NCBI GenBank assembly: GCA_050173015.1
Contig: JBFXLE010000029.1
Location: forward strand, 1-43,650
Reading direction: 5' to 3'
DNA length: 43,650 bases
From: Calditrichaceae bacterium
Lineage (GTDB): Bacteria > Calditrichota > Calditrichia > Calditrichales > JBFXGD01
Part shown: one piece after another, positions 5,799 through 27,478 of the stretch
How the letters are laid out: each line of letters opens with the position of its first letter
Numbering within the stretch: the stretch's first letter is position 1
Notes under the pieces: model-generated
What the model was told of the DNA's origin: nothing
Database searches by the model: none
The model's input: the letters and a program-made list of their open reading frames with translations, nothing else
Position numbers and translations under genes: made by a program

Positions 5799-5937
5799 TA
5801 TCCTAAAACATACCTCGCTAGTTAAATCAATTATTCCTGTCCGGCTTTACAATAAGGCTTGAAGGACCGGAATGTTCAATATTTCAATCTGTTATTGTCA
5901 TGATTTCATCATGTCGATCATTTTGTATGAGGAGACT

Positions 5938-7260: not shown

Positions 7261-7275
7261 GAGGAAACATTAAGG

Positions 7276-8229: not shown

Positions 8230-8244
8230 AAAAGGATTTGGAAA

Positions 8245-11200: not shown

Positions 11201-11352
11201 TTGCCACCGGTGTCGGTAGCGAAGTTCAGCGTCCCCTGGCGACCGTCGTTCTTGGCGGATTGTTCACATCGACATTATTGACATTGTTGGTTATCCCGGC
11301 GATCTACAAATGGTTTGCCGTTGAGGTAAAAGTTGAAGCTCAGTTAGATTAA
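8245..11352 (+). CDS. czcA: Heavy-metal efflux RND transporter (CzcA/CusA family)
   Basis: 1035 aa; LPIDAFPDV, IGMLVDGTIVMVEN, GVEGKTFRPLA, RFRPVLMTA, GSEVQRPLATVVLGGL. Confidence 0.93.
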   Translation: MNKMVQFVLKNRLLMIVLGFLVMAGGYYSYQKLPIDAFPDVSPSLVQVFTLTEGLAPEEIEKYVTFPVEVAMNGLPELEKIRSVSNFGLSVVNIYFKDGTDIYFARQLVNERLQEAREQIPPGFGEPEMGPISTGMGLIMFYYLEDTTGQLSLTELRSIQDWLIKYQLQTVPGVTEVLGIGGWEKQYHVILNPNDMLRYNLVANEIIDKIKANNLNVGAQFIEKNAEEYIIRSVGLAGNIEDLENIVLISEGGIPVYLKQVAHIETGGAIRRGVQTRNGVEEVVSGQVVKLYGTNSSTVIGQVEEKLAEINKILPEGVRLVPYYEQKTLVEAAISTVSSALLQGILLVTLVLLLFMGSLRPTIVVAVSIPFSIFFAMIGMYYFGISVNLMSFGGLAIAIGMLVDGTIVMVENVDRMLRTAPPEESKLHVVARAFREVARPILFAITIIIVVFLPLFSLQGVEGKTFRPLAYTIAMAMLGSLIFAIFLAPVFAGTLMRKPKDGEAGKPQKEIYVIRLLQDFYRPLITFFVRKRHMALVLAVALMALGAAIFPRLGTEFTPTLKEGTIVLRLTMAPSISLNQSIKTTQIVERRVMKVPEVTEVVTRIGRGEVGAHTDPINSAEMYILLKDKSEWRTAENQSDLEEVIRDAVGNIPGVRANFTQPIQMTVDELLEGVRAELAVKLFGDDLDELKHKANEIASVIRKVPGAADVQPDQISGMPQLLIKIDRHAIARYGINVEDVQQVIHAAVGGESAGQIFEGVKRFDILVRFAQDYRDTPEAIGQILIKAPGGNHVPLSQLATIEEITGPRQITRENSQRFITIQCNVVGRDIGSFVKEGQKAIEAGVSLPAGYLVTWGGQFRLQQEANKRLAVVIPATLLVIFLLLFSSFNSIKNTLLILFNIPLALVGGVVALWVGGENLSVPASVGFIALFGIALENGMVLVTYLNQLVKDGIPLDEASVTGAILRFRPVLMTALTTALGLIPLLLATGVGSEVQRPLATVVLGGLFTSTLLTLLVIPAIYKWFAVEVKVEAQLD

Positions 11353-11866: not shown

Positions 11867-12002
11867 AACTACGGTGCTTCCTTTTGTTAATCAAATAATT
11901 TGAACCGTATATAATTTATGTAGGCAGGAGTTTAGAAAAACTTACCTGTTGATTCAAGTGCGGGTTGCAGAAAGTTGGGAGTTTTTGTAAAAATAGGGAA
12001 GA

Positions 12003-12910
12003 GGTAAGTAGGAATTAGGAAATAAGAAGTAGGAAGTGGGAAGTAGGAAGTAAGAAGTTTAAGAAAAAAGATAAAAGATAAAAGAAAAAAGATGGTCTGA
12101 ACTCGGATTAAAATGATTAAATGATGTGCATGATTAAGAAAATGGATATCAGAGTAATCATTTAATCAGGCGGATCATGGTTCAGACAATGTGGAAAGTA
12201 AGAATTAAAGAGCGTTAAGAGTTAAGAGTAGGGTCGTCCGAGTGACATACAGGACTTATTTGAGTTGTCCGATGACACTCACAAATCGGTCATCCAGGAG
12301 GGATCTTCTGCTTGCTAGGGAAGTGAAGAAAAGTAAGAAGTAGGAAGTAGGAAGTAGGAAGTAAGACGTTTAAGAAAAAAGATAAAAGATAAAAGATAAA
12401 AGAAAAAAGATGGTCTGAACTCGGATTAAAATGATTAAATGATGTGCATGATTAAGAAAATGGATATCAGAGTAATCATTTAATCAGGCGAACCCGCCAT
12501 AGGCGGGCAGGTCAGAGTTCAGACAATGTGGAAAGTAAGAATTAAAGAGCGTTAAGAGAAAAGAGTTATGAGTTAAGAGTAGGAAGGGCCAAAAAAAATT
12601 GATTCCCTAATCCCGAAGGGATGAAATTTTTGTAGAAAAACAGACCCCGCAACATCCCGCGGCCCCGTAGGGGTCGAACAAATACAGCGGGAATCCCTGT
12701 TCTGCCAGCCTGGATAATCTTGTTTTTAATCCCAAATCAATCGTTTGGATTCTTCTGGGCGAATTTTCTGTCCGAGTGATAAATTTAGAAAAGCAGATTA
12801 AAGTAACACGAGTTAAAATTCGCCAGGGCTTTTTGCTACTTTTTGGCCATTCAAAAAGTAGGAAGGAAGAAAAAGAGAGAAGTAGGAATTAAGAAGTAAG
12901 AAGTAAGAAT
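12003..12910. repeat. Mosaic of palindromic repeat modules separated by purine-rich heptamer tracts (AGTAGGA/AGTAAGA/GATAAAA)
   Basis: Contains an inverted copy of the 222-1281 unit (12198-12366), two GTCTGAAC...GTTCAGAC modules (12095-12187, 12413-12524), a twin-hairpin module (12610-12675) and inverted repeats at 12758-12824 and 12837-12860; no ORF in the track. Confidence 0.92.
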
Positions 12911-13057: not shown

Positions 13058-13720
13058 ATGTTAAGTCGTTTATTTATGGTCATATTTCTGGCCGTCGCGA
13101 TGTTCGCCTTTTCGGGATGCGGGAAAACACAAGAAGAGAAAATGGCGGAACAGGCGGCCAAACAGATGGAAGAGGCTGCCAAAAAAATGGCCGAAAATGC
13201 TGATGATATGTCAAAAGCAATGGAGAAAATGGGTGAGGCGTTCTCGGGAGGCGAAAGCGTGGAGCCGGTGTCCTTTAAGGATCTAAAAGCGTTGTTGCCC
13301 GAGAGTCTGCCCGGAATGGAACGGACCAGCGCAACGGGCGAGAAAACCTCAGCGATGGGTATCAAAGTGTCAGAAGCCAATGGTGAATACCAGAGTGATG
13401 ACGGAAGTCTGATTGAAATTAAGATCATGGACATGGGTTCCATGAGCGGTTTCGCGGCCATGGCCACATATGCCTGGACCATGACGGAATTTGAACGTGA
13501 ATCAGATACCGGTTATGAACGGACTACAAAAATTTCCGGTTACAAGGCGTTTGAGGAATATAATTCTGATGACAAGTATGGTAAAATTCAAATTCTAGTC
13601 GGAGACCGTTTTATCGTTGAAATCGAAGGCAATGGTGTCGAAATGGAAGCGCTTAAGGAAGCGGCCAAAAAAATTAATCTTGGTAAGTTGTTTGATATGC
13701 GCACAGAGGGCATATCTTAA
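13058..13720 (+). CDS. Hypothetical lipoprotein
   Basis: Lipobox FSGC, helical EEAAKKM linker, then a globular domain; GGGG RBS and downstream terminator. Confidence 0.8.
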   Translation: MLSRLFMVIFLAVAMFAFSGCGKTQEEKMAEQAAKQMEEAAKKMAENADDMSKAMEKMGEAFSGGESVEPVSFKDLKALLPESLPGMERTSATGEKTSAMGIKVSEANGEYQSDDGSLIEIKIMDMGSMSGFAAMATYAWTMTEFERESDTGYERTTKISGYKAFEEYNSDDKYGKIQILVGDRFIVEIEGNGVEMEALKEAAKKINLGKLFDMRTEGIS

Positions 13721-13743
13721 CATTTAATTTTGTGATTCAGTTC

Positions 13744-13771
13744 AAAAAGCCTCCGCCGGGAGGCTTTTTTT
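13744..13771 (+). terminator. Rho-independent terminator
   Basis: AAAAAGCCTCC-gccg-GGAGGCTTTTTTT. Confidence 0.9.
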
Positions 13772-13842
13772 ATGGAATTATCCCTGAAATGTTTTATTTT
13801 TGATACGTCACACACATAAAAACAGGAGTTTGGACGTTTCTG

Positions 13843-14478
13843 ATGAAGTTCAGGATGATAGAAGAAAGCTATCGGTTTGACTGTACCACGTGCGGTAATT
13901 GCTGCACGGGAGATATGAAAATCAATCTCAATCTTTTCGATCTTTACAAAATGGCCCGGTTCAAAAAATTTAGTGATACGGGGGAATTATTCAGGCAGAA
14001 TCTGGTCACGCTTGTGAAAGGCCAGTATAATGTCTGGATGCCGAGAATCCGTTTTAAGACCAAACCGGAGGTATTTTGTCCGTTCCTGATTAATGAACTT
14101 GATGAACATGGGGGGATCAAAGGATTGTGCAGTATGCATCCTCATCACAAGCCGTTGATCTGTTCGCTCGCGCCGGCGGGAAGAATCATAGATTTTGATC
14201 ATGGGCATATTAATTATGTCTATGTCAAACCCGCGCCTGACTGCGAAGGAGTAAACAGCGGCAAACTAAATTATCTTAGTGATATAGAAAAAGAATATAA
14301 AGTTGAACTGGAATATCAATACCGCTTTTACAAAATACTTGAAAATATCAAGTCACACGCCATCTCCCGTGAAACGATGATGAATGAGTTGTACGCGTTT
14401 AGAGTTGATTCTGATTTTGAAGACATATTGGCGGAGAGAGAAGAGCGTCTTTTGGTTGAAGATCTGAATCTTATATAA
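13843..14478 (+). CDS. YkgJ-family cysteine-cluster (CxxCxxCC) protein
   Basis: FDCTTCGNCC, CPFL, CSMHPHHKPLICSLAP, CEG; AGGAG upstream. Confidence 0.88.
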   Translation: MKFRMIEESYRFDCTTCGNCCTGDMKINLNLFDLYKMARFKKFSDTGELFRQNLVTLVKGQYNVWMPRIRFKTKPEVFCPFLINELDEHGGIKGLCSMHPHHKPLICSLAPAGRIIDFDHGHINYVYVKPAPDCEGVNSGKLNYLSDIEKEYKVELEYQYRFYKILENIKSHAISRETMMNELYAFRVDSDFEDILAEREERLLVEDLNLI

Positions 14479-14559: not shown

Positions 14560-14670
14560 CACTTCTTACTTCCAACTTCGAAATACAGACGCATGATCAT
14601 GCGTCTGTACTTACATCTCACTTCTTAATTCTTACTTCTTACTTCCCACTTCCTACTTCTCACTTCTCCT
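14560..14670. repeat. Heptamer tract carrying a perfect 26-bp REP-like palindrome
   Basis: TACAGACGCATGATCATGCGTCTGTA at 14584-14609, flanked by ACTTCTT/ACTTCCT/ACTTCTC heptamers. Confidence 0.88.
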
Positions 14671-14679
14671 CCCATCCAT

Positions 14680-14714
14680 TATCAAAAAACTGATACCCCA
14701 TCAGAAATCTGATA
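14680..14714. promoter_or_regulatory. Candidate tandem upstream activator sites (ATCA-N6-TGAT x2)
   Basis: tATCAaaaaacTGATa (14680-14695) and cATCAgaaatcTGATa (14699-14714), 19 bp apart, about 90-125 bp upstream of the -24/-12 element. Confidence 0.55.
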
Positions 14715-14804
14715 ATAAATAATCAGTATAAGGGATATGTTTTAATTGATCTAAGTTTAATATTATCAGGGTAATAATCCTTTATTATATCAAAGCGCAT
14801 TAAA

Positions 14805-14820
14805 TGGCATGATAATTGTC
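14805..14820 (+). promoter_or_regulatory. Candidate sigma54 (-24/-12) promoter of the serpin operon
   Basis: TGGCAT-GATAA-TTGT versus consensus TGGCAC-N5-TTGC, correct spacing, 40 bp before the serpin ATG; an NtrC-family activator is encoded downstream in the same gene run. Confidence 0.65.
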
Positions 14821-14859
14821 CTATTTAATGGCATACACATTTTAACCGGAGGTTTCATC

Positions 14860-16095
14860 ATGAAAATAAACAGCACTTTGCTATTTATTACCGTCTGTTT
14901 ATTCCTCGTTTCTGCCTGCGCGGATTCCAATTTACCGGCGGATCCTCAGCCGATTCGTGAACTAAACGATCAGGAGAAGCAACTGGCCGAAGCGGATAAT
15001 GTATTCAGCTTGAAATTATTCCGGGGTGTAAATGCCGTGGACGGAGAGAAAGATGTTTTTATATCCCCCTTAAGTGTATCTTTCGCGCTGGGTATGACCT
15101 TAAACGGAGCGGCAGATGAAACATATCAGGCCATACGCCGGACACTGGAGTTTAATAATCTTGATCCTGAGAAGATCAACGCCACTTATAAAAGCCTGAT
15201 TGCGTATCTGACTGAAATCGATCCGAAGGTTGCTGTACAAATAGCCAACTCGATCTGGTATCGCCTGGGATTTGACGTAAAGGATGATTTTCTTCAGACC
15301 AATCAATTCTACTTCAACGCGGAAATTGCCGCGCTCGACTTTGGGGATCCTCAGGCGGTAGTTACTATCAACGACTGGGTTGATAAAAATACCAACGGAA
15401 AAATTACAAAGATAGTCGATTCCATAAATGATGAAATCGTGATGTTTCTGATCAATGCCGTCTATTTTAAAGGTGACTGGATGTATGAATTTGATCCTGA
15501 TGATACATACGACGGAACGTTTTATCTGCAGGATGGCTCGGCGGAACAATGCGGTATGATGCCACAGGAAAACACATTTGATTACTTCCGCAACGACTTT
15601 TTTCAGGCCATTGATCTACCCTATGGCAACGGCGCTTACGCCATGACTGTATTTCTTCCCGCGATGGGAACCGATATCAATCAACTTATCGAACAAATGG
15701 ACGGGACCGCGTGGGAAAGATGGACAAACGGATTCTCTCAAAAAGAGGGAAGGATTGTTTTGCCAAAATTCACAAAGGAATATGAGATTAGTCTGAATGA
15801 AATTTTAAAATCACTGGGTATGGAAATCGCTTTCAACGCGGGAGAAGCGGATTTCTCAAATATCAATGAGACGGCAGAGCTGTTTATCAGCGAAGTAAAG
15901 CATAAAACCTTTGTTGAAGTTGATGAAAAAGGCACGGAAGCCGCCGCGGTAACCTCTGTAGAGATGGGAGTAACGTCGGTTAATCCGGATTATTTTGTCA
16001 TGGAAGTGAACCGGCCGTTCTTTTTTGTAATCAGGGAAAGTCACTCCGGCACCATCCTGTTTATAGGCAAAATTCTTAATCCAAATAATAAATAA
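14860..16095 (+). CDS. Serpin-family protease inhibitor, lipoprotein
   Basis: FISPLSV, INDWVDKNTNGKI, LINAVYFKGDW, hinge EKGTEAAAVT, VNRPFFFVIRE, ILFIGKI; lipobox VSAC; GGAGG RBS before ATG 14860. Confidence 0.96.
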   Translation: MKINSTLLFITVCLFLVSACADSNLPADPQPIRELNDQEKQLAEADNVFSLKLFRGVNAVDGEKDVFISPLSVSFALGMTLNGAADETYQAIRRTLEFNNLDPEKINATYKSLIAYLTEIDPKVAVQIANSIWYRLGFDVKDDFLQTNQFYFNAEIAALDFGDPQAVVTINDWVDKNTNGKITKIVDSINDEIVMFLINAVYFKGDWMYEFDPDDTYDGTFYLQDGSAEQCGMMPQENTFDYFRNDFFQAIDLPYGNGAYAMTVFLPAMGTDINQLIEQMDGTAWERWTNGFSQKEGRIVLPKFTKEYEISLNEILKSLGMEIAFNAGEADFSNINETAELFISEVKHKTFVEVDEKGTEAAAVTSVEMGVTSVNPDYFVMEVNRPFFFVIRESHSGTILFIGKILNPNNK

Positions 16096-16110
16096 TCACT
16101 TGGAGCGGAT

Positions 16111-17916
16111 ATGAGAAATACAATTTTAATCCTGTTGTTTCCCGCGGTTGTACTGGCTCAATACTGGGGGGAGCGCGCGAATGAAAAGAGTTTTGAACAA
16201 TCGTCGCTTTATTTCAACAGCTACTATTTAAATACGTTTGGTATTTATCAGTTCAGGGATGTCGCCGTGGGATTAATTGATGATCCGTTTTTGAATATGC
16301 ATCTAAATCCGGCCCGTTTTAAATCAGATACCCTCGCCAACACTCTGATGTACATGGATTTCCGTGGAGACCGGAAAGTCATAGAAGCGACTCAATATTA
16401 TCCCTATCCGTTGTATTATGATGATTATTATTACAGGAATTATATTATTGATCCGCGCTGGTACACGACTACACGCTCGGAACCGGAACCGGTATTTTCA
16501 TTCGGAATGATCACCTTCCCGGCCGGAAAGAATCTTTATATCGGCGGATCATATCAGTTGATCTACAAAAAAGAGCCTTACTATCAGGTGCCGACCTGGA
16601 TCTATAACACGAGGTATGGTTACGACGCGTTTGGCGAAAAAGTAGATACCGGAACGGAAATTCCGGTCGTTGACAGGTACGCGGGAGAAGATGAAATGCT
16701 GACTACGGCGCATATGATTTCGGGAAGCATTGGTTACCGGTTGTCAGAAGCGATTAGATTAGGTATCAATGTGAATTCCGTCGCGCATGACAGGGATGGC
16801 CTATATTTAAATGTTAATTCTGATGAGTATTCAACTTCTGGCGGCAGCGACTGGTATAATGCTTATTCTACCGATCGTGATCAGGAGTACAGTCATATTG
16901 ATATCAATGGAGGTCTTCTCTATCAATTATCGCCGAAAGTTAATATTGGAATAAAAGCCGGAATTTTGGACGGAAATGTAAAACAGAGTTTGAACAGGAC
17001 CGATTCGTCACATTATAATTACGACTATACTTATGACGACAGAACAGATTTTTCAAACAGTTTCAGCAGTGGGATAACAAGTCAGAACTGGGAACACGAC
17101 GGACAAAGCAAATACGGAAATATTAGCCTTAATTATGAAATGACTCCCGGAAACCATCTGAAAATCTATTATCAGCACGAAAACAAAGACATTGATTTAA
17201 CAAATAGCTCGGTCATCAATGATACTTCCTTTTATGCCAGCTCTTATTCCTGGGATACTACGAGGGTAACCAATCTCTACTGGTCATCCGTAAAAGACAT
17301 CCGCGACGCGACCGGCAAAAATGATATCACAATAAACCGGGGGATGTTTTCGTTTAGCCTGAAGGCAAGTCCCAAAAGCACTGTTTCCTTCGGATTTTAT
17401 TTTTCAAACACAGAATCGAGAACAAACACCGTCGAACCGGTTTCTGTAATCAGAGACTCCGAGAGTAAATATTATTATACCTATAATGAGTTATTTACAC
17501 CTGATACGTCACATTATATTTACTATGTGGAAGAAGATAAGCGGCTAACGTGGAAATACGAATCCAGTCTTAAAACCATGCAAATACCGGTTGTTCTCAA
17601 TTATATGATCGCGGAAAACTGGAATTTGATGCTTGGAGTAAACAGGATTTTAAACAGTTGGGAGATTAAAGAAGAAACCATCGCCTATTTTAACCTGCGG
17701 AAGAAAAATGAGAACGGAATCACCGGAGAAGAAACAAATTTTATAGAACGTTACAGGGAACCGACAAAAAATTATACGGAGAATGAAACGGATTTTATGG
17801 CGGGATTGAATGTAAAGGTTTCACCGAAGTTTACGATAAATATTCTCGTGGATCCGGAATCGGAGCCCGATTGGCGTATTTCACAATGGTGGCTGAGTTT
17901 TAGCGCAAAATTGTAA
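16111..17916 (+). CDS. Predicted outer-membrane beta-barrel protein, unknown function
   Basis: Signal peptide (..AVVLA/QY), Tyr/Ser/Asn-rich alternating strands, C-terminal amphipathic strand WWLSFSAKL. Confidence 0.65.
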   Translation: MRNTILILLFPAVVLAQYWGERANEKSFEQSSLYFNSYYLNTFGIYQFRDVAVGLIDDPFLNMHLNPARFKSDTLANTLMYMDFRGDRKVIEATQYYPYPLYYDDYYYRNYIIDPRWYTTTRSEPEPVFSFGMITFPAGKNLYIGGSYQLIYKKEPYYQVPTWIYNTRYGYDAFGEKVDTGTEIPVVDRYAGEDEMLTTAHMISGSIGYRLSEAIRLGINVNSVAHDRDGLYLNVNSDEYSTSGGSDWYNAYSTDRDQEYSHIDINGGLLYQLSPKVNIGIKAGILDGNVKQSLNRTDSSHYNYDYTYDDRTDFSNSFSSGITSQNWEHDGQSKYGNISLNYEMTPGNHLKIYYQHENKDIDLTNSSVINDTSFYASSYSWDTTRVTNLYWSSVKDIRDATGKNDITINRGMFSFSLKASPKSTVSFGFYFSNTESRTNTVEPVSVIRDSESKYYYTYNELFTPDTSHYIYYVEEDKRLTWKYESSLKTMQIPVVLNYMIAENWNLMLGVNRILNSWEIKEETIAYFNLRKKNENGITGEETNFIERYREPTKNYTENETDFMAGLNVKVSPKFTINILVDPESEPDWRISQWWLSFSAKL

Positions 17917-17949
17917 CTTAGGTTTTTAAATAAACCGGTGGAAACAAGC

Positions 17950-18402
17950 ATGAAGATGATAAAATACACCCTGTTAATCATTCTCCTGGTTGCGGGATGC
18001 GACGACCCCGTTTCACCTTCTTTGGATTATTCAGAAATGGAAATACATTATCAGAAGTCCGGAGGGTGGATTCCCGTAACCAATCTGTCGGTAAACGGCG
18101 CGGACGCGATCATAACCGGTTTTGAAATCAGTCAACAAGGGCAGTCGTCAGATACGCTTCGTCAAGATGCGGATCAGGCCGAATTAAACTTTCTGGCGGA
18201 GATTTTCTACAATTTTGATCAATATAAAGATTATTATGAGCCGGTTGATTTTTATACCGACGCGAATTATTATCAGACGGTGCTGATTTATAAAGGAAAA
18301 AGGGATACAGTGACGGTATATGACCTTGCCAGAGTGAATCTGCCTAAGGGTTTGAAGCGTATAATTGATGAGATGGAAAAAATATCAGACAGGTTATTTT
18401 AA
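17950..18402 (+). CDS. Lipoprotein, emfourin (protealysin-inhibitor)/DUF6438-like
   Basis: Lipobox VAGC; IHYQKSGGW ... TDANYYQTVL ... DTVTVYD ... LPKGLKRII resembles the emfourin-family pattern (by eye). Confidence 0.55.
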   Translation: MKMIKYTLLIILLVAGCDDPVSPSLDYSEMEIHYQKSGGWIPVTNLSVNGADAIITGFEISQQGQSSDTLRQDADQAELNFLAEIFYNFDQYKDYYEPVDFYTDANYYQTVLIYKGKRDTVTVYDLARVNLPKGLKRIIDEMEKISDRLF

Positions 18403-18416
18403 CCGGGAGAAAAAAG

Positions 18417-18848
18417 TTGAAAAAATTGTCATTTATTCCGGTTTTGATTATGATTCTTGCCTTTTTCTGGAATTGCGGTGATGATGAATTAACCGCTACA
18501 GGGAAATTGCTGAAAATGGCAAGTGATACCATTGAAGTTGCCTATGGCGATACCGTATATGCTCCGGGAGGGTATGATCGTATCACATTTGATTCCCTGC
18601 TCCAGGAAAGCCGCTGTCCCACAGGCGTTGTCTGTGTTTGGGAAGGAAACGGTTCCATTCAGATGTCACTGCTCACTGAATCAAAGAAAGTTTCATTCAT
18701 TCTGAATACGCATCCGGACTTCACTAACGATACCACAACGGTTGGTTATTATATTTCGTTGGTTGAATTAAATCCGTATCCACATATAGACAGTACGTAC
18801 ACAGAGAAAGATTACCGCGCGGTTATACTTGTAAGAACCGAGATTTGA
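18417..18848 (+). CDS. Lipoprotein with SRCP..VVCVWEG disulfide loop
   Basis: Leader ending FWNC then GDDE; ESRCPTGVVCVWEGN and LNPYP motifs; TTG start with GGGAG RBS. Confidence 0.8.
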   Translation: MKKLSFIPVLIMILAFFWNCGDDELTATGKLLKMASDTIEVAYGDTVYAPGGYDRITFDSLLQESRCPTGVVCVWEGNGSIQMSLLTESKKVSFILNTHPDFTNDTTTVGYYISLVELNPYPHIDSTYTEKDYRAVILVRTEI

Positions 18849-18885
18849 TCAGTTTATTATTCAATATTTTATCAGGGGACAAGAT

Positions 18886-19365
18886 ATGAAATCACTAATT
18901 TTTATTCTCACTTTAATAATTGTTTTTCTGACCGCGTGCAGGGAAGATGATCAGGTCACGGATTTTTCGCTTCGCGCGGTATCGGGTTCGAATGTTATAA
19001 TTATTGGCAATATTGACAGCGTGCAGATATTTGAAGATTATGTTTCTCTCGAGGATGTCAGCATGAGCGGGGATACGCTGATTTTGAATGTTGCTTATTC
19101 CGGCGGATGCAAAGAACATGAATTTTCACTTTTCGCGTCAACAGATTTTGCGGAATCATATCCTGTGCAGGCATCCATTTATCTTTCGCATAATTCGAAT
19201 GATGACCGGTGTAAGGCATTGATCAAAGAAGATCTGCGTTTCAATTTATCCATATTAAAAGACGAATACAGGAAATTGTATAATGACAACGGGCCGATTG
19301 ATCTGAACCTGTTCGCGCCGGGGGTATCTGATGCGCGTAAACCCCTTATCAGATATTCATTTTAA
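18886..19365 (+). CDS. Lipoprotein with NigD-C-like domain
   Basis: Lipobox LTAC; YSGGCKEHEF, ESYPVQ, HNSNDDRCKA, FNLS pattern. Confidence 0.7.
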   Translation: MKSLIFILTLIIVFLTACREDDQVTDFSLRAVSGSNVIIIGNIDSVQIFEDYVSLEDVSMSGDTLILNVAYSGGCKEHEFSLFASTDFAESYPVQASIYLSHNSNDDRCKALIKEDLRFNLSILKDEYRKLYNDNGPIDLNLFAPGVSDARKPLIRYSF

Positions 19366-19455
19366 GTATGGTGATTAATATTTTTCTTTCGGGAGTACAT
19401 CTGAAAAGGTATATTGAAATAAATTCAATTCAGGAAGTTTCACTAACAAGATAAT

Positions 19456-19848
19456 TTGATGGTTACAAATATGACCTTTTCATTCATGATTCTTTTATTC
19501 GCGGGCGGATGTATTTCCGGCGGACAGGATGATAATTACATCATCAGTCAGGTATATTCAATCGATTCGGTAAAAATCATAAAATCGGCAGATCTTGAAT
19601 ATTCCGCGCGTATCAAAGCCGCGGTGCCAAATCCCTGTCACGAGTATTCTCACATCGATCTGGTAAGGGAAGGTAACGACATACAGGTGCTTGTATATTC
19701 GAAGATCAGAAAGGATGTGACGTGCATTCAGGTTCTGGGTTCGATAGAAGCCGAAATATCGTTCAAAGTTGAATCGGCCGGGGACTATAAGATCCACTTC
19801 AAGGGAAGAAGCCGCGTGTTGGATGTCGAAGCGGAAATCAAAGATTAG
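19456..19848 (+). CDS. Small lipoprotein with paired cysteines (Ig-like)
   Basis: Lipobox AGGC; PNPCHEY ... DVTCIQVL ... GDYKIHF; exact start uncertain. Confidence 0.7.
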   Translation: MMVTNMTFSFMILLFAGGCISGGQDDNYIISQVYSIDSVKIIKSADLEYSARIKAAVPNPCHEYSHIDLVREGNDIQVLVYSKIRKDVTCIQVLGSIEAEISFKVESAGDYKIHFKGRSRVLDVEAEIKD

Positions 19849-19928
19849 CCCGGGGGTGAAAGTCAGAATCTATGGAGGTTACGTCCACAACTGCACAATT
19901 CTGATTTCGCGCCGAACCATGGGAATTA

Positions 19929-21341
19929 ATGGACTATCATCGAGATCGAATGAACCGGATTTTCAACATATCATTCAAAACGAGAATCATTTTAATATTC
20001 AGCCTGATTCTGATTCTGCTCGTCGGTTTAATGGCCAGGGTCAGCTATGTCTTTGTCAGTGAAATTTACCAGCGACAGCTCGAAGAACAGGTATTGCTGT
20101 TAAACGAACTTACAGCGGATGGACTGGACGAAAAATATCTGGATTATATCGAACCAGCGGCTGATAATTTTGCCTACGAATTTTATAAAAATATTTTGGC
20201 GGATAACGTTAAGCGTATGCGGATCAGCAACGCGTTTTTGTTTAACGATAATATGCAGATTCTGATCAGTGTCAATCAGGAAATTTCCGATGCAAGACTG
20301 CTCCTCAACCGGAGTGAGATCAGCGAATTAACTTCGGGTAAAGGCATCATATCCACGCCTTTCAAGGCACAAGATGGTCAATGGTATCTGTGGGGATTTT
20401 ACCGGTTAAATGATCACTATTATCTCGGAATCCAGGAGAGCGCCACGCGTCTTGCCCGGCTGGATGAATTATCACTCATGTTTCTGGTCATTGGTATCGC
20501 GGGAATCGTTATCGTGGTCGGAGGAAGCTGGTTTGTAGCGCGCGCCATCATCAGCCCGATTAATAAACTGGCCAATTTCAGTTCAGACATAGGAAGCGGG
20601 CATTTTAAAACGGAGATTCCGGAAAATATAACAGGTGAATTGGCGGTATTAAGAGACGCGCTTGTAAAAATGAGAGACGACCTTGAGCAAATGCAGAAGG
20701 ATAAGGAGAATATTTTCGCTGAAATCGCCCATGAGATCAGAAACCCGCTCGGGGGGATAGAGCTTCTTGCCGGCCTTGTCCGGGAAGAAACCGACCCATC
20801 GAGTAAAAATAATGTTTATCTGAATAAAATCCTGGAAGAAGTCCAGTCACTAAAATCCCAGATCACCGCGTATCTGGATTACAGCCGCCCCCTGACACCT
20901 GAGCCGCAAGAGATAAACCTGGATCAATTATGCGGTGAATTAAACGGCCTGTTTCTGAATCAAATGGAAGAAAAAAAGATCCGACTTGAATACCGGAATC
21001 GTTTGGATACGATCAGGTTTGACAAACAGCACCTCAGGCAGATACTCATAAATCTTGTAGCGAACAGCATTGAAGCGATAGGCCGGGAAGGGATAGTTAC
21101 CATAGAGTCTTACCAAAAAACTGATCATTCATATATTACGGTAAGCGACAGCGGACACGGTATCAAAAAAGAAGATTTGGCAAATTTGTTTAAACCGTTT
21201 TTTACGACAAGAAAAAAAGGCACCGGTCTTGGATTGTCGGTTTGCAAAAAACTTTGCGGTGAAAACAATGCCGAGATTTCTGTGCTGAACAATGCCGATA
21301 AAGGCTGCACATTTCAGATCATGATGAAAAATGAAATTTAA
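19929..21341 (+). CDS. Sensor histidine kinase (2 TM, periplasmic sensor, HAMP, HisKA, HATPase)
   Basis: AEIAHEIRNPL H-box, ILINLVANSIEA N-box, DSGHGI, FKPFFTT, GTGLGL; alternative start at 19950. Confidence 0.95.
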   Translation: MDYHRDRMNRIFNISFKTRIILIFSLILILLVGLMARVSYVFVSEIYQRQLEEQVLLLNELTADGLDEKYLDYIEPAADNFAYEFYKNILADNVKRMRISNAFLFNDNMQILISVNQEISDARLLLNRSEISELTSGKGIISTPFKAQDGQWYLWGFYRLNDHYYLGIQESATRLARLDELSLMFLVIGIAGIVIVVGGSWFVARAIISPINKLANFSSDIGSGHFKTEIPENITGELAVLRDALVKMRDDLEQMQKDKENIFAEIAHEIRNPLGGIELLAGLVREETDPSSKNNVYLNKILEEVQSLKSQITAYLDYSRPLTPEPQEINLDQLCGELNGLFLNQMEEKKIRLEYRNRLDTIRFDKQHLRQILINLVANSIEAIGREGIVTIESYQKTDHSYITVSDSGHGIKKEDLANLFKPFFTTRKKGTGLGLSVCKKLCGENNAEISVLNNADKGCTFQIMMKNEI

Positions 21342-21363
21342 AATGGCGGAATGAGATAAGATA

Positions 21364-22734
21364 ATGCATACTGATCAGATTATCATCGTTGAGGATAACG
21401 ATTCAATGAGAATGGGGATGGCGGAAAGTCTCCGGCGTGAGGGTTATCCGGTATTTGAGTTCACGGAAGGCGCTCACGCGCTGGAACATATGAAATCCCA
21501 TCCGGCGGCGCTCGTCATAACCGATCTAAAAATGGAGCCGATGGATGGTCTGGCGGTGTTAAAGAAGGTCAGGGAGAAACACCCCGATACAGAGGTTTTA
21601 ATGGTCTCTGCGTATGGGACGGTGAATGTTGCCGTAGACGCGATGCGCATGGGCGCCGTTGATTTTATGACCAAGCCATTTTCCAATGACGAGTTGCGGA
21701 TCCGGGTTAAAAATATCCTACAGAAAGTGGAAAAAGACCGCTTGATTAACCGGCTGCGGGACGTGAATGAGTACCTTTTGGATGAAATTTCATCTGAGTA
21801 TGAACAAATCATCGGAAGTTCTCCTCCCATGCTGGAAATATTCAGATTGATTGATAAAATAGCCAAAGAGGAAAGTGTCATACTGATTGAAGGGGAGAGC
21901 GGCACGGGAAAGGAACTTGTGGCAAGGGCGATACACAGAAAAAGTAAACGGTCTGATCAGTCATTTGTGCGGGTAAATTGCGGCGCGTTAAATGATAATC
22001 TGCTCGAGAGTGAGTTGTTCGGCCATGAAAAAGGCGCGTTCACCGGAGCAGTGCGCAGGAAAAAAGGCAGATTTGAACTGGCGGACGGCGGGACGCTCTT
22101 TCTGGATGAGATTGGTGATATTTCTCCCAATATGCAGGTAAAATTACTGCGCGCGATTCAGGAAAAGGAATTTGAGCGGGTCGGCGGTGAAAAAACACTA
22201 AAAGTCAATGTCCGGATCATTGCCGCCACCAATAAAAATCTTCAAAAATTAATCGCTGCCGGTAAATTCAGAGAGGACCTTTTCTACCGTTTGAGCGTGA
22301 TCCCGGTAAAGCTTCCGGCATTGAGACAGAGGAAAGATGATATACCGCTCCTTATTGACCATTTTTTAGAAAAACAGGGTAATAAAGGTTCACTAAAGAA
22401 AACGTTTTCATCACGCTCAATTTCGCTTCTGCAGGATTATTCCTGGCCCGGAAATATCCGCGAGCTGGAAAATCTGATCGAACGGCTCTGCGTGATATCA
22501 CAGGAGTCCGAGATTGAAGCGGAGACGGTCGCGTCATACATATCCGGTTTTCGCGGCGCGGTACCGGATCAGGTTGGTCTCCCGCTGGAAGAAGCGCTTT
22601 ATTCATTTGAGAAGAATCTGATCCAGCAGGCCATGAAAAACGCAGATGGTGTAAAAAACCAGGCGGCAAAGCTGCTGGGTATTCGTACGAGCACGCTTTA
22701 TTATAAACTTGAAAAATTTGGAATGATCGAATGA
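21364..22734 (+). CDS. NtrC-family sigma54-dependent response regulator
   Basis: Receiver (VEDND, TDLKM, KPF), [38 protein letters not shown]-terminal Fis-type HTH. Confidence 0.97.
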
Positions 22735-23684
22735 GAATGATGATTTTGGCTATATTACTCTTTTTCTCAACTCTGACGGCGCAATCGTTATCAGATGAAG
22801 AACAGAAAATGATGTCTCTTGAGAAAAAAGAGCAGCTGCAAAACATGAAGATTGATTCCTTAAGAAAGAATTATGAGACAGCGCTTGACAAGATTGATCA
22901 AAAAAAATCAGCGAAGGAGGCAGATTCAAAAGAAATCGCATCCATGATGGCCGGCGCGTTTGATATTTCAAAAAAAATCGAAAAAGAAGAGGCGGTCTTA
23001 AAAAGCATTCATGATAATCTTCAGACGGTAAAATTAACCATTTATAAAATCTGTACCCAAAAGATTGATTCTCTGCAGAATAAAACCGGGAAAAAAAGCA
23101 ATGATTCTGAAAAGAAAAAAATAGAGCAGGAAATATTGAGACTTGCCGAAAAACGGATGCTGGCCTTGCCCGTACTCACGGATCTGAAATTCGATCCGCG
23201 GAAAATCCGGGATATTGACCTGAAAAGCGCTTCCGAGGGTATCGAAGAGTCCATATTCAAAGATTATCTCGCTAAGGCGCTGGCTGAAATCGATTCTCAC
23301 CTGACTGCGATCCGGCAAAGACGCGGCGATCTTGATGAAATGAAAAGGCTGGAGGCAAAAGCGGAGATTTTTCTGGCCGACGCGCAGGACAGCAGAATTT
23401 TTGAATTCTATCCTCAATCCCAGGATGATCTATCAACCAGACCGGCTGAAACTTCAGATTACCAGTATGATTATAATAAAAGCGGCCAGATTGACGCGTT
23501 CCGGACCATGATTTTACAATTATATGAAGTCGGGCCCGAAATAGGCATCAATTCTCAAAACAAAAATATTTTATCGGAGGATAAGTCGCTGAGCAGAGAT
23601 CAGTATCTTGAGTTAATAAAAACCACCCAAAAGTATCTTGAGCTATATCGGAAACTGATATTAAAAAAAATGGAAAACCGATAG
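22731..23684 (+). CDS. Exported helical/coiled-coil protein, unknown function
   Basis: Signal peptide (..STLTA/QS), Lys/Glu-rich helical composition; ATGA overlap with the regulator. Confidence 0.75.
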   Translation: MRMMILAILLFFSTLTAQSLSDEEQKMMSLEKKEQLQNMKIDSLRKNYETALDKIDQKKSAKEADSKEIASMMAGAFDISKKIEKEEAVLKSIHDNLQTVKLTIYKICTQKIDSLQNKTGKKSNDSEKKKIEQEILRLAEKRMLALPVLTDLKFDPRKIRDIDLKSASEGIEESIFKDYLAKALAEIDSHLTAIRQRRGDLDEMKRLEAKAEIFLADAQDSRIFEFYPQSQDDLSTRPAETSDYQYDYNKSGQIDAFRTMILQLYEVGPEIGINSQNKNILSEDKSLSRDQYLELIKTTQKYLELYRKLILKKMENR

Positions 23685-23701
23685 GATTGATGCCGTTCTG
23701 A

Positions 23702-24712
23702 ATGAGATCACAGATGAAAATTCAAATAATCGCGCCGCTGCTTTTCTTTATTATCGCGTTTACGGACGCTGCTGAAAAAATCCAGTTTCAACTGGGGGCG
23801 GAAGCCGGTGGGTATCGCTCGGAATACGTGGATGGTAGATTTGTGTCCAGAATCTTCGGGCGTTTTGATTATCAAAATCAATTTAACAATAATTATGTGC
23901 AGTTAAAGGCCCGTGTATTTCCCGAACGCTACGGATTTGAAAACAGCGTAAACGCGCTGAAATTTTCAGGAGATCTGACGTTTGGCAAATCTCATGAGAC
24001 ATTTAACTGGCAGTTACGTCTGTATGATAAGCGTTATTTTTATTTCAGTGATATTTTTGACAACATTTCATTCGATGTGTTTCTTCTTGGCGGACAGATT
24101 TCTAAATTCGTCAGCCCGTTGACTGTTTTAAGATTGGCTCTGGACTATACCTACCGTGACCTGTCGGAACAACCCCGCAACCGCCTGGACAGTTTTACAA
24201 GCGCGCTGGCCCTGTCACACCGGATTCAGCGCAACAGTTTGATAAGTTTTGTGATCGGCGCCGAAAACTATGAGATACAGTTCGATAGCATAGAACCGGA
24301 ACCTGCCCGAAACAACGGCTGGAGAATTGGGCCCGGGATCAGCTATCACCATAAATCTGTTTATTTATTTGATTTTTCCTATCAGTTTATTCTGGAATCA
24401 TCTGACCTATCGGAAGAATCTTCCCGGGAGCATCAGATAAAAATTTTATGGGGCCGATTTTTGAGTAAAAAATGGTCTCTGTTCCTTTACGGAGATTACC
24501 GATATTTTAGTGATAAAGTAAAAGATATACCCGCGGATCTCTCATATACGCCGGTAAATAACGAAAACTGGTATTATATCAAACTGGGCTATGATATTGA
24601 TATAAAGAGAGAAATCTACTTAAAGACAGGATATTCAAAAGAAGACCTGATCTACAGCAGCCGCTCTCTGTCCGGCTGGCAGGGTCTGCTGGGATTTAAT
24701 TTAGCTCTGTAG
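23702..24712 (+). CDS. Predicted outer-membrane beta-barrel protein, unknown function
   Basis: Signal peptide, aromatic-rich alternating strands, C-terminal strand WQGLLGFNLAL. Confidence 0.65.
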   Translation: MRSQMKIQIIAPLLFFIIAFTDAAEKIQFQLGAEAGGYRSEYVDGRFVSRIFGRFDYQNQFNNNYVQLKARVFPERYGFENSVNALKFSGDLTFGKSHETFNWQLRLYDKRYFYFSDIFDNISFDVFLLGGQISKFVSPLTVLRLALDYTYRDLSEQPRNRLDSFTSALALSHRIQRNSLISFVIGAENYEIQFDSIEPEPARNNGWRIGPGISYHHKSVYLFDFSYQFILESSDLSEESSREHQIKILWGRFLSKKWSLFLYGDYRYFSDKVKDIPADLSYTPVNNENWYYIKLGYDIDIKREIYLKTGYSKEDLIYSSRSLSGWQGLLGFNLAL

Positions 24713-24843
24713 GTATTACTCCCGCCTCAATTTCATCTTTTGATATGATTAAATAATTCCGAAAATTATTCATTGATAAGAATATTCTGTTGAAGAATCG
24801 GGTTTGTATCTTTGGCAATAAAAATAACAGACGGAGAAGTGAT

Positions 24844-25944
24844 ATGCTGGGTCATCGTTTTACAAAATATGTGCCCGGAAATACTGATGAACCTTCATTT
24901 GAGTCTCTGCTTGAAGTCTTTTTACAGCTGATCACATATACCGGCGGGAATGTGTCTGAAGCATTAAGCTGGATGAATCAGTTAGATCAAAAATATAATA
25001 TGACTGATGACAGTTATGGGATGGGCAATTTCATCGATGATCTTAAAGAGAAGGGATTCATAGAGGAAAGCTCGTCAGAATCGGGTGTATTTGCCGTAAC
25101 ATCAAAGGCGGGGCAGACTATTCGCCGTCGCGCCCTTGAAGAAATTTTCGGAAAGCTCAAAAAAGCGGGAAGGGGCAATCACCGGACCCCAAAGGCCGGA
25201 TTTGGCGATGAAACCAACGGAGAGCGCAGAAATTATGAATTCGGCGACTACATGGATCAGATTGATACAACGACATCGATTAGAAACGCACAGATTAATC
25301 ACGGTATTGACGAATTTAAACTAACCGAAAGGGATCTTGTCGTTGAAGAGCAGGAATATAAAACGCAAACATCGACGGTGTTGATGATTGACATATCGCA
25401 TTCTATGGTGCTTTATGGTGAAGACCGCATTACACCCGCGAAGAAGGTGGCAATGGCATTATCCGAGCTGATCATTACCCGTTATCCGAAAGACACGCTT
25501 GATATCATCGCCTTCGGTAATGATGCCTGGCCGATCGAAGTGAAGGATCTCCCATATCTGCAGGTGGGACCATATCACACGAATACTTATGACGGGCTGG
25601 GGCTTGGGATGGATATCCTGCGCCGCAGGAAAACAAACAATAAACAGATTTTTATGATCACCGATGGTAAACCGACCTGTCTCAGGGAAGGAAATAAATA
25701 TTACAAAAACAGTTTTGGTCTGGATCGTAAAATTATAAATAAAACCTTAAATCAGGCCGCGCGCTGCAGGCGATTAAATATTCCGATTACAACATTTATG
25801 ATCGCTAAAGATCCGTATTTACAGAAATTTGTCAGGGAATTTACCAGGATTAATAACGGCCGCGCTTTTTACAGCAGCCTTACCGGTTTGGGGGATTATA
25901 TTTTTGAAGATTATATCCGGAACCGCAGAAAGCGGGTTCGCTAG
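24844..25944 (+). CDS. VWA-domain protein
   Basis: MIDAS motif MIDISHS, HTNT, MITDG; GGAG before ATG 24844. Confidence 0.88.
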   Translation: MLGHRFTKYVPGNTDEPSFESLLEVFLQLITYTGGNVSEALSWMNQLDQKYNMTDDSYGMGNFIDDLKEKGFIEESSSESGVFAVTSKAGQTIRRRALEEIFGKLKKAGRGNHRTPKAGFGDETNGERRNYEFGDYMDQIDTTTSIRNAQINHGIDEFKLTERDLVVEEQEYKTQTSTVLMIDISHSMVLYGEDRITPAKKVAMALSELIITRYPKDTLDIIAFGNDAWPIEVKDLPYLQVGPYHTNTYDGLGLGMDILRRRKTNNKQIFMITDGKPTCLREGNKYYKNSFGLDRKIINKTLNQAARCRRLNIPITTFMIAKDPYLQKFVREFTRINNGRAFYSSLTGLGDYIFEDYIRNRRKRVR

Positions 25945-25969
25945 TTAGATCAAAAAAGGAGTTGTTAGC

Positions 25970-27478
25970 ATGATCAGGAACCATATTAATATAAAGACGC
26001 TTGGTGAGTTAAAAAAATCCGGTTACAAAACGCAGTCCATAAAAGATGAGCTGCGTAATAATCTGATACGTCTGCTTAATCAAAAAGAGAATCCGTTTCC
26101 CGGAATAATAGGTTTTGATGATTCGGTAATTCCGGATATTCAAAGGGCTATCCTTTCCAGGCACAATATCATTCTTCTCGGATTACGCGGGCAGGCAAAA
26201 ACCCGTCTGGCCCGGCTGATGGTAAATCTGCTTGATGAGTATATCCCGGTAGTAAAAGGCTCAGAGTTAAATGATGATCCCTTTTCGCCCCTTTCCCGTT
26301 TCGCAAAAGATCTTGTGTCTGAAAAAGGAGACGAGACTCCGGTGGAGTGGGTTCACCAATCTGAGAGATATACTGAGAAATTGGCCACTCCGGATGTTTC
26401 CATAGCTGATTTAATCGGTGATGTTGATCCCATCAAAGCGGCCGCTTTAAAATTACCTTATACCGATGAGCGGGTCATTCATTTCGGCTTAATACCGCGT
26501 TCGCACCGGTGTATCTTTGTAATAAACGAATTACCCGATCTTCAGGCCAGGATTCAGGTGGCCTTATTCAACATTCTCCAGGAGGAGGATGTCCAGATTA
26601 GAGGGTTTAAGCTTCGACTGCCGCTTGATATTCATTTTGTTTTTACCGCCAATCCCGAAGATTATACAAACCGCGGGGCAATTGTTACCCCTCTGAAGGA
26701 TCGTATCGATAGCCAGATACTGACACACTATCCAAAATCCCTCGATATTTCAAAACTGATCACCCGTCAGGAGGCAAAGCTGACTCCGGAGCAGGTCAAA
26801 AAGATTCATATTCCTGAACTGGTTGAAAATCTGGTTGAACAGATCGCCTTTGAAGCGCGCCAGAGTGAATATGTTGATTCCAACAGCGGTGTATCCGCAA
26901 GGCTGACAATCTCAGCTTATGAAAATCTGATGAGCACAGCTGAGCGTCGTATTATACTTAATGGTCAGAATGATACATGTTTAAGAATTTCAGATATCTA
27001 CGGGGTTATCCCCTCTATAACCGGTAAAGTTGAACTCGTTTATGAGGGAGAGCAGGAAGGTCCCAGTAAAATTGCCCATATCCTGATCAGCAAAGCAATC
27101 CGCAATCAGTTTATTCACTTCTTCCCAAATCCGGAGAAGCTCAAAAAAACAGAGGAAACCAATCCATATCAGGAAACTACAACCTGGTTTTCACAGGGAA
27201 ATGAAGTCGATCTGCTCATGAATACATCAGATGCCGAACACCGGAAAGCAATCTTCTCAATCCCCGGGCTTGAAAAATTAGTCGATCGGTATCATCCGGA
27301 AATGAGTCCGGATAAAAAATTATTGTTAATGGAGTTTGCTCTTCACGGTTTGGCGGAATTCTCATTTTTAAGCAAACACAGGCTGGATACGGGAATCCAG
27401 TTCAAGGATATGCTCAGCAGTATGTTATCGGAAAAAGAACTGGATGATGAGGATGATATATATACAGGGACTTTTTAA
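25970..27478 (+). CDS. AAA+ ATPase, Mg-chelatase/MoxR-related
   Basis: Walker A variant GLRGQAKT, ADLIGDVDP, Walker B variant FVINELPDL, ANPEDYTNRG, PLKDR. Confidence 0.88.
   Translation: MIRNHINIKTLGELKKSGYKTQSIKDELRNNLIRLLNQKENPFPGIIGFDDSVIPDIQRAILSRHNIILLGLRGQAKTRLARLMVNLLDEYIPVVKGSELNDDPFSPLSRFAKDLVSEKGDETPVEWVHQSERYTEKLATPDVSIADLIGDVDPIKAAALKLPYTDERVIHFGLIPRSHRCIFVINELPDLQARIQVALFNILQEEDVQIRGFKLRLPLDIHFVFTANPEDYTNRGAIVTPLKDRIDSQILTHYPKSLDISKLITRQEAKLTPEQVKKIHIPELVENLVEQIAFEARQSEYVDSNSGVSARLTISAYENLMSTAERRIILNGQNDTCLRISDIYGVIPSITGKVELVYEGEQEGPSKIAHILISKAIRNQFIHFFPNPEKLKKTEETNPYQETTTWFSQGNEVDLLMNTSDAEHRKAIFSIPGLEKLVDRYHPEMSPDKKLLLMEFALHGLAEFSFLSKHRLDTGIQFKDMLSSMLSEKELDDEDDIYTGTF

Follow-up and report, generated by a model that had tools for sequence, protein, structure and literature searches.

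A sigma54-linked gene cassette of Calditrichota with a predicted barrel-threaded secreted protein: a candidate trans-envelope signalling relay

Background

In this study, we report a ten-gene cassette of a Calditrichaceae bacterium, located on contig JBFXLE010000029.1 whose full length of 43,650 nucleotides was analysed (the window, by which the whole of this DNA is meant), and propose that its four-gene core may encode a signalling relay across the cell envelope. The ten open reading frames (ORFs), A to J, span 14860-24712 on the forward strand with intergenic gaps of -4 to about 100 bp, in the order serpin (A), a 601-aa protein (B), four small lipoproteins (C-F), a sensor kinase (G), an NtrC-type activator (H), a 317-aa protein (I) and a 336-aa protein (J). 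Comparison of related sequences showed a fixed core (G-H-I-J), a predicted enhancer-promoter footprint and a variable cargo. In a structural model of the I-J pair, a conserved helix of I is threaded into the lumen of the barrel J. A trans-envelope relay of J, I, G and H, whatever its signal, is considered probable; for the narrower reading preferred here, an autoregulated relay of these four components in which protease cleavage of a loop of I is the signal, our estimate is about 0.4.

Results and discussion

A fixed four-gene core in the phylum

Loci were sampled as the DNA around matches to B, the serpin, J and the enhancer site, with 20 J loci newly added. All 40 fetched loci holding the four core genes kept the order G-H-I-J (40/40), and the conserved synteny for which the preliminary description of this DNA had proposed a gene-neighbourhood search was thereby found; 18 more loci held some of G, I and J, mostly at contig or fetch ends. 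I was directly upstream of J in 19 of the 20 J-centred loci, and the I-J gap ranged from -58 to 254 bp, mostly below 40. After removal of five near-duplicates, B or an alternative protein, B2, accompanied 28 of 35 full-core loci and the serpin 18 of 35, both figures being lower bounds as loci on incomplete contigs are included. Minimal cassettes (L119, L125) keep the enhancer and G-H-I-J, and in the split regulons L119, L120 and L125 the I-J pair stays with G-H, not with the cargo.

J was matched in 56 of the 86 genomes of the phylum, of which 54 were counted as core-bearing; G039, where the gene is broken and contains stops, and G068, a weak partial match, were excluded. B or B2 was found in 50/54 core-bearing genomes versus 7/32 others, and the serpin in 34/54 versus 16/32. 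No statistical test was applied to these genome counts because the genomes are kin. B or B2 is the most constant output of the regulon, and the serpin is an optional, dispensable one.

The barrel of a same-genus relative of the window is 85% identical. Judged from the taxa of Atlas clusters, relatives of B occur in Ignavibacteriota, and look-alikes of J in Myxococcota, Gemmatimonadota and others; a scan of a genome collection with the single B sequence gave one locus, and for this reason gene context beyond Calditrichota is known from unassigned metagenome loci and the Atlas cluster taxa. A word-indexed search with J returned 4 proteins only, and plasmids gave no match to J or B2.

Apparently decayed cassettes were seen at G039:C26:16418-18118 (serpin, then J fragments with stops) and at G040:C6:69055-71871 (serpin and B2 without the core). 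Family f5 may have an extra member, a secreted protein of some 500 aa without annotation that follows J (L129:959-2449, L130:1448-2932, L131:1314-2804, L133:4591-6117).

Predicted threading of I through the barrel J

Protein I is a core component whose gene had been left uninterpreted in the preliminary description. Its family is compact, with 261 representatives at E<=0.001, the best 150 of which are all 230-353 aa long and free of fusions. The signal peptide ends before Gln, and the copy in the window has no lipobox. Neither I nor J matched a Pfam or NCBIfam family beyond generic coiled-coil or barrel noise; the structural matches of J were generic 16-stranded barrels, and its lumen carries conserved basic residues (Lys/Arg at 6, 26, 47, 63, 270 and 284).

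Prediction of the I-J complex gave an interface score (ipSAE) of 0.65 versus 0.00 for the best of three controls, the runs agreeing in at least 40% of contacts and the partner predicted local distance difference test score (pLDDT) being at least 69. For comparison, 116 of 157 solved pairs but 2 of 215 mismatched pairs attain this ipSAE mark, counts that apply only roughly to our own alignments. In the model, residues 186-206 of I contact ten strands of J around the lumen, with 186-190 at the periplasmic rim (J 198, 228, 229 and 235), and the invariant Phe197 packs on Phe237, Tyr239 and Lys270 of J. The helix carries a conserved L-x-x-K-x-x-x-FLEE motif whose FLEE tip faces the conserved Lys/Arg residues of J, and the remaining J contacts fall on strands 2-4 and 14-16, in the outer half of each. 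The model thus supports a path in which the helix would cross the otherwise empty J lumen outward, starting at the periplasmic rim and ending at the outer mouth. A role in display or signalling had earlier been suggested for both barrels of the cassette; a signalling role is supported for one of them, J.

The helix is followed by a hypervariable loop which, in 144 sequences, is 23-53 residues long, rich in Gly, Pro, Thr and Ser and devoid of Cys, with a mean pairwise identity of 9% versus 26-33% for the helical segments.

Two known classes of barrel were considered for J and rejected. J has 16 strands and no tetratricopeptide repeats (TPRs), and 0 of 23 members of its alignment match SlipAM, which speaks against a Slam (type XI) exporter; Slam proteins have 14 strands and N-terminal TPRs. 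As for Omp85/TpsB, J is a barrel only, without POTRA domains, and a CdiB match covers the barrel alone.

It is nevertheless conceivable, if improbable, that I and J form an export, assembly or display device for the lipoproteins or B, such as a split Slam-like unit, and not a sensor. By language-model features J resembles clusters containing SlipAM and BBP2 (0.96-0.97; SlipAM in 19-50% of members), small cargo ORFs were lipoprotein-like by a crude pattern in 68 of 109 cases versus 110 of 977 background ORFs, and one locus (L132) keeps B, a shortened I and J without a kinase. Such a device fits poorly with the strand number of J and the lack of SlipAM matches in its alignment, with a modelled helix that fills the lumen, with the company that I-J keep in the split regulons and with a cargo that has no common domain.

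The kinase, the activator and their putative enhancer-promoter site

Kinase G contains His268, and activator H has Asp54, the Walker A motif and GAFTGA, in agreement with the kinase/NtrC pair with intact GAFTGA noted earlier. Among 43 H orthologues, GAFTGA was found in 32, GSFTGA in 10 and GAFSGA in 1. Profile searches with the sensor domain of G gave no significant family match; 2 of 22 sensor domains gave a faint dCache_1 match (E 0.026). In L074, L109 and L123 the H gene is split into two ORFs, by assembly error or inactivation.

The -24/-12-like element and twin palindromes reported upstream of the cassette are present at 14805-14819 and 14680-14714, respectively, and are kept in relatives, where two palindromes with a 19-bp period (consensus TATCAGATATCTGATA) precede the first gene and TGGCAY-N5-TTG follows 78-167 bp further on in 37 of 46 training loci, bearing out the sigma54-type promoter with a dedicated enhancer. 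Judged from the window by itself, the promoter motif occurs about as often as expected by chance (1 match versus 0.69 expected) and the palindrome is mildly enriched (5 versus 1.6 expected; 3/100 shuffles); both elements are taken as real because they are conserved in relatives. The -12 element is non-canonical, being TTGT in the window and mostly TTGA, TTGT or TTGG in relatives, with the canonical TTGC in 1 of 37 loci. The distance between enhancer and promoter showed no clean helical phasing (best R 0.50 at 12 bp).

With a matrix trained without the window and without its same-genus relative, the composite enhancer site of the window was the best of its genome (59.2), compared with 18.7 for the next independent site and a maximum of 16.4 in the reversed-genome control; the scan found no wider regulon in this genome, the cassette site being its sole strong enhancer. 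The exact paired-palindrome pattern, which was derived from the same Calditrichota lineages in which it was counted, occurred in 42 of 86 genomes of the phylum and not in the reversed control, and in 38/54 J-bearing genomes versus 4/32 others. A sigma54 gene is encoded in the genome.

Elsewhere in the phylum, barrels, serpins, small lipoproteins and type IX-signal proteins are the kinds of genes found behind the enhancer. Unlinked serpins often retain it (L086, L087, L094, L099, L101, L112), those of split cassettes such as L094, L099 and L101 together with the promoter, the unlinked B or B2 genes of split cassettes likewise retain both enhancer and promoter (L041, L044, L147, L148), and a few sites precede type IX-signal proteins, those at unlinked positions (L140, L141, L146) including a CotH/LTD protein. 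From its linkage, H would be the protein that binds the tandem palindrome, and the cassette is probably autoregulated by its own sigma54 activator.

The serpin and the barrel outputs

The start of A was placed at ATG 14860 because ATG 14809 falls within the promoter. A scored 378.8 bits versus a Pfam Serpin cut-off of 27, and its nearest entry in the PDB was 5ncs (cleaved forms named miropin; E 1.8e-84). The hinge is intact, with small residues (EKGTEAAAVT; P17 Glu, P15 Gly, P14 Thr, P12-P10 Ala), and similar hinges occur in relatives. The predicted P1-P1' pair is Thr-Ser, with P17-P1 of the reactive loop encoded at 15925-15975, and in relatives P1 is mostly Thr and P2 variable. The sequence therefore supports an inhibitory miropin-like serpin, as the initial comparison with the lipoprotein serpin of Tannerella had implied.

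B and J both folded as barrels when modelled, as predicted. In the B model the N-terminus forms a helical plug, strands 1-5 and 15-16 are short, and strands 6-14, which are very long, build a tall extracellular wall (strands counted from DSSP). Its top structural match was PopA (9gf0; Z 21.1, root-mean-square deviation 3.7, 302 aligned), ahead of other barrels, including FadL, at Z 15-18. The PopA superfamily of Bdellovibrio shares with B the 16 strands, the helical N-terminal plug, the short strands on one side and the tall wall, the strand-length asymmetry and the plug being described in the available part of PMC12228718; the two differ in sequence (9% identity), in length (586 versus 331 residues for PopA) and in the two-component control of the B gene. 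Members of the superfamily form radial oligomers with a hydrophobic lipid chamber, and the likeness of B is that of the fold in a single-chain model. A TonB-dependent transporter, with 22 strands and a large plug, was rejected for B, which has 16 strands and a TM-score of at most 0.29 to such proteins.

B2, a well-conserved unannotated family of 470-540 aa, stands in for B or occurs alongside it in 24 of 86 genomes (e.g. L102:11454-12902, L122:7936-9399) and would also be a barrel, judging by its position and sequence pattern. A sequence search of the PDB with B and B2 gave 0 matches, and profile comparison of B with B2 gave no significant match (probability 1.3%).

A barrel, variable lipoproteins and a dedicated regulator together resemble utilisation loci. 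The cassette could on these grounds be a foraging locus that senses peptides or another nutrient, with B or B2 as an uptake or adhesion barrel, the lipoproteins as binding proteins and the serpin as a guard against the cell's own proteases, and the faint dCache_1 matches of the sensor domain would suit it. PahS-PahP-PahK-PahR, as presented in the accessible part of PMC10570129, is a precedent for a nutrient relay from outer membrane to kinase. We nonetheless find a foraging role quite improbable: B lacks the 22 strands of a TonB-dependent transporter, I does not belong to the substrate-binding proteins, and hydrolases are almost absent from the cargo, with one sulfatase/nucleotidase in 95 scanned proteins besides flanking read-through genes.

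The variable lipoprotein slot

The slot occupied by C-F in the window is hypervariable, with 129 ORFs in 64 sequence clusters, although some of these ORFs are spurious or read-through. In Pfam scans of 95 + 50 proteins from the cargo, the regulon and the flanks, the domains recognised included META, DUF6174, NigD-like and type IX-signal domains, and the serpin was the only inhibitor family.

The four small lipoproteins had been proposed to inhibit several protease classes. This claim found little backing: hidden Markov model comparison of C-F with the PDB matched no solved inhibitor, with chance matches only at E<=5, and the sole positive hint came from fusions of the D domain. Among 99 longer relatives of D there were 13 tandem repeats, 2 serpin fusions, 1 Kazal fusion, 1 META, 3 E-type and 2 F-type fusions, and DUF6174 also occurred. 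The serpin and Kazal fusions of the two-Cys domain are P0233, P0238 and P0194, and one of them joins the D domain, DUF6438 (the weak match of C) and a serpin; many other relatives carry BP74_N. The fusions are suggestive only, but by sequence the D-, E- and F-type domains appear to travel together and with inhibitors. Profile comparisons E-F and D-F gave no alignment, and no longer relatives of F were found, which is weak evidence.

These fusions, and the Cys pairs conserved in D, E and F, leave some room for the tentative view that the four lipoproteins C-F resemble the potempins and each inhibit proteases of a different class; it is compatible with the protease-cleavage relay and was scored separately. 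In PotC the reactive loop is anchored by a disulfide (PMC9890683, in the part available). In the cassette, by comparison, no cognate protease gene is adjacent as with the potempins, the cargo shows neither a PDB match beyond chance nor a Pfam inhibitor family besides the serpin, and D and F occur also in genomes without J. We regard this view as possible but unlikely.

Layout and surroundings of the locus

The coordinates of the cassette features are listed in Table 1. All ten co-oriented, closely spaced genes of the preliminary description were recovered, and five proteins, as it had counted, have signal peptides ending at a lipobox-like Cys (VSAC, VAGC, FWNC, LTAC and AGGC, as read from the sequence). 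Only A, G and H scored above a Pfam cut-off. No protease domain was found by Pfam among the ten genes. The few terminator-like matches on the forward strand all lie within ORFs, 0 between cassette genes, and an Rfam search of the window gave 0 matches.

Table 1. Features of the cassette, with positions in the window
Feature	Position	Strand	Description
Enhancer site 1	14680-14695		palindrome TATCAAAAAACTGATA; consensus TATCAGATATCTGATA
Enhancer site 2	14699-14714		palindrome, 19-bp period from site 1
Promoter	14805-14819	+	sigma54-type -24/-12, TGGCA-N6-TTGT variant
A	14860-16095	+	lipoprotein serpin, miropin-like; Pfam Serpin E 4e-113
B	16111-17916	+	601-aa plugged 16-stranded barrel, PopA-like fold; model pLDDT 80, predicted template-modelling score (pTM) 0.81
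C	17950-18402	+	small lipoprotein, variable cargo; weak DUF6438 likeness, E 0.004, below cut-off
D	18417-18848	+	small lipoprotein, variable cargo; invariant RCP-x4-CxWxG two-Cys motif
E	18886-19365	+	small lipoprotein, variable cargo; NigD-C-like beta-sandwich, NF051862 E 1.3e-6 below cut-off, NigD_C weak
F	19459-19848	+	small lipoprotein, variable cargo; conserved Cys pair PxPC ... CIQV
G	19950-21341 (alternative start 19929)	+	core sensor kinase; conserved periplasmic domain of ~140 aa, HAMP-HisKA-HATPase
H	21364-22734	+	core NtrC-family sigma54 activator; receiver-AAA+-HTH (helix-turn-helix); Asp54, Walker A, GAFTGA intact
I	22731-23684	+	core secreted all-helical protein, 317 aa, undescribed family; N-terminal coiled coil
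I, helix	23337-23399	+	predicted lumen-inserted helix, mature residues 186-206
I, loop	23400-23486	+	hypervariable loop, residues 207-235
J	23702-24712	+	core unplugged 16-stranded outer-membrane barrel, undescribed family; model pLDDT 91, pTM 0.84

Upstream of the cassette (13058-14478) lie genes for an unannotated lipoprotein and a CxxCxxCC protein, and downstream (24790-27478) a vWA and AAA/Mg-chelatase-like pair. The cassettes L102, L109 and L122 share flanking neighbours with the window, so that the site is probably an ancestral insertion site. Composite intergenic repeats, with 7-bp units of the TTCCTAC/CTTAACT type within repeated elements of 132-170 bp, occur at 222-1282, 11997-12909 and 14610-14668, and a short 7-bp repeat array stands directly upstream of the enhancer. 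Further away, at 5373-11352, is a resistance-nodulation-division efflux operon (OEP, HlyD, AcrB-type), with a GC content of about 0.47-0.52, above that of the cassette.

A proposed mechanism and its weighing

We propose that I, as modelled, docks its conserved helix in the J lumen and would thereby place the hypervariable loop at the surface or pore mouth, while its N-terminal coiled coil may reach the periplasmic domain of kinase G. An extracellular protease, the most likely signal, could then clip the exposed loop as it would a bait, after which I, altered or set free, would activate G. From family knowledge and the conserved footprint, G would phosphorylate H, which would bind the tandem palindrome and fire the sigma54 promoter about 120 bp downstream. 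The outputs would be B or B2, the miropin-like serpin, lineage-specific small lipoproteins and more sensor, and the serpin would close a negative feedback loop. The analogy of a bait is drawn to alpha-2-macroglobulin and to the decoy sensors of eukaryotes. The fullest version of the proposal, a tripwire in which a bait loop is threaded through its own barrel and its cleavage is relayed to a kinase inducing the serpin and rotating lipoproteins, some of them new inhibitor families, we consider rather unlikely.

A protease signal is favoured here because unlinked serpins stay under the enhancer, the loop is bait-like, a precedent exists in Bifidobacterium breve and Caldithrix has a proteolytic lifestyle; growth of Caldithrix abyssi on proteins and more than 150 encoded peptidases are reported in the part of PMC5317091 that was available.

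Several observations weigh against this reading. The loop has a ratio of non-synonymous to synonymous substitution (dN/dS) of 0.36 versus 0.11-0.30 for the other segments in four close pairs, which indicates relaxed constraint, and positive selection on it was not found in these pairs; the loop may for this reason be a plain linker. Residues 207-270 of I have no confident position in the I-J model, so the point where the helix ends is the sole indication that the loop is exposed at the surface. The serpin is absent from 20/54 core-bearing genomes, several of them nearly complete, and present in 16/32 genomes without the core, where some copies may be cassette remnants; the serpin-less core genomes and the absence of selection on the loop weaken the protease signal in particular. 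L132 (13271-17163, G075:C50) combines a divergent B and a paralogue of J with an I that is shortened at its N-terminus, and no kinase, activator or enhancer was found at the locus. At L118 (14809-15834, G057:C2) J stands alone, G-H-I being behind an enhancer on another contig (L149) and B, with its own enhancer, on a third (L041). From these two loci, I and J can persist without a linked kinase. About two dozen other NtrC-like genes are present in the genome (25 tblastn matches including H), which is why the assignment of H to the enhancer rests on linkage.

Of I, the paralogous locus L132 retains no more than the C-terminal part that binds J (profile 181-311), and its genome, G075, also carries a normal cassette. 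In this one example, the shortening is consistent with the N-terminal coiled coil serving as the link to G.

The same J-I-G-H relay could also carry another signal, such as outer-membrane or barrel-assembly status, with uncaptured I accumulating and touching G, or a ligand that displaces the helix, and the serpin would then be an optional passenger. The architectural evidence (the I-J model and the core order) is the same for both, and it is a barrel rather than the serpin that forms the constant output (50/54 versus 34/54). Also in favour of such a signal, RcsF, which is threaded through outer-membrane proteins (OMPs), senses the state of the lipopolysaccharide (LPS) (PMC4942254), and a sigma54 kinase is activated through contact with QseG (PMC6075780), according to the available parts of both reports. 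Against it, classical envelope-stress regulons include chaperone, DegP, barrel-assembly (BAM) or LPS genes, and none of these was recognised among the 95 + 50 scanned proteins. On balance a signal of this kind appears possible but doubtful.

Relation to known systems

No description of the cassette was found in the literature searched, which included PMC12316311 and did not extend to subscription papers and supplements (among them the PopA homologue table), and the earlier impression that the combination was not a described system held in that literature. The serpin operon of Bifidobacterium breve has an adjoining two-component system, which we take to be SerRK. That system is protease-induced according to the part of PMC8012564 available, and its host, unlike that of the cassette, is monoderm, with no outer-membrane barrel or threaded partner; the cassette adds a sigma54 activator and a regulon with barrels and lipoproteins.

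In RcsF/OMP-IgaA-RcsCDB a protein threaded in a barrel lumen likewise carries information across the outer membrane (PMC4942254, in part), as it would, by the model, in the cassette. RcsF is a lipoprotein that uses general porins and senses LPS, whereas I, a helical protein without lipidation, has a dedicated barrel encoded in its operon and a sigma54 output; cassette genes gave no family match to RcsF, IgaA or RcsB. QseE-QseG-QseF of E. coli similarly combines a kinase, a sigma54 activator and a co-encoded envelope protein governing the kinase, but QseG is an inner-leaflet lipoprotein without a partner barrel and, in the available portion of PMC6075780, qseEGF is described as not autoregulated; I has no profile match to any such family. 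PahS-PahP-PahK-PahR of Cycloclasticus shows the same order of outer-membrane barrel, periplasmic protein, kinase and regulator, and differs in its TonB-dependent 22-stranded receptor, a substrate-binding protein carrying a small ligand and a GacA-type regulator (PMC10570129, as far as available). Tannerella forsythia provides both the nearest relative of A, miropin, and examples of small outer-membrane lipoprotein inhibitors, the potempins, which in the part of PMC9890683 available are encoded beside cognate proteases and have oligonucleotide-binding (OB) or 8-stranded barrel folds; C-F have no sequence match to them.

The cassette would work like a blend of RcsF/OMP, QseEGF and PahSPKR and, by the features tested, is a member of none of these, nor of Slam, Omp85 or the potempins. 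It is real, conserved and undescribed as far as searched, and is probably a variant of trans-envelope two-component signalling.

Conclusions

Little is known of the ways in which diderm bacteria perceive proteases or other macromolecular threats beyond their outer membrane, and descriptions of barrel-threaded sensors are few. The cassette yields two undescribed, co-conserved families, I and J, for which a specific interface is predicted, its enhancer and promoter are precisely defined, and the four-gene core is compact enough to be rebuilt with a reporter. Its cargo slot provides a focused pool of uncharacterised surface lipoproteins that can be screened for new protease inhibitors, and the regulon is defined for a protein-degrading phylum whose regulatory biology is almost undescribed. 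If true, the tripwire, conserved over most of the phylum, would give prokaryotes an equivalent of the bait and decoy protease sensors found in eukaryotic immunity.

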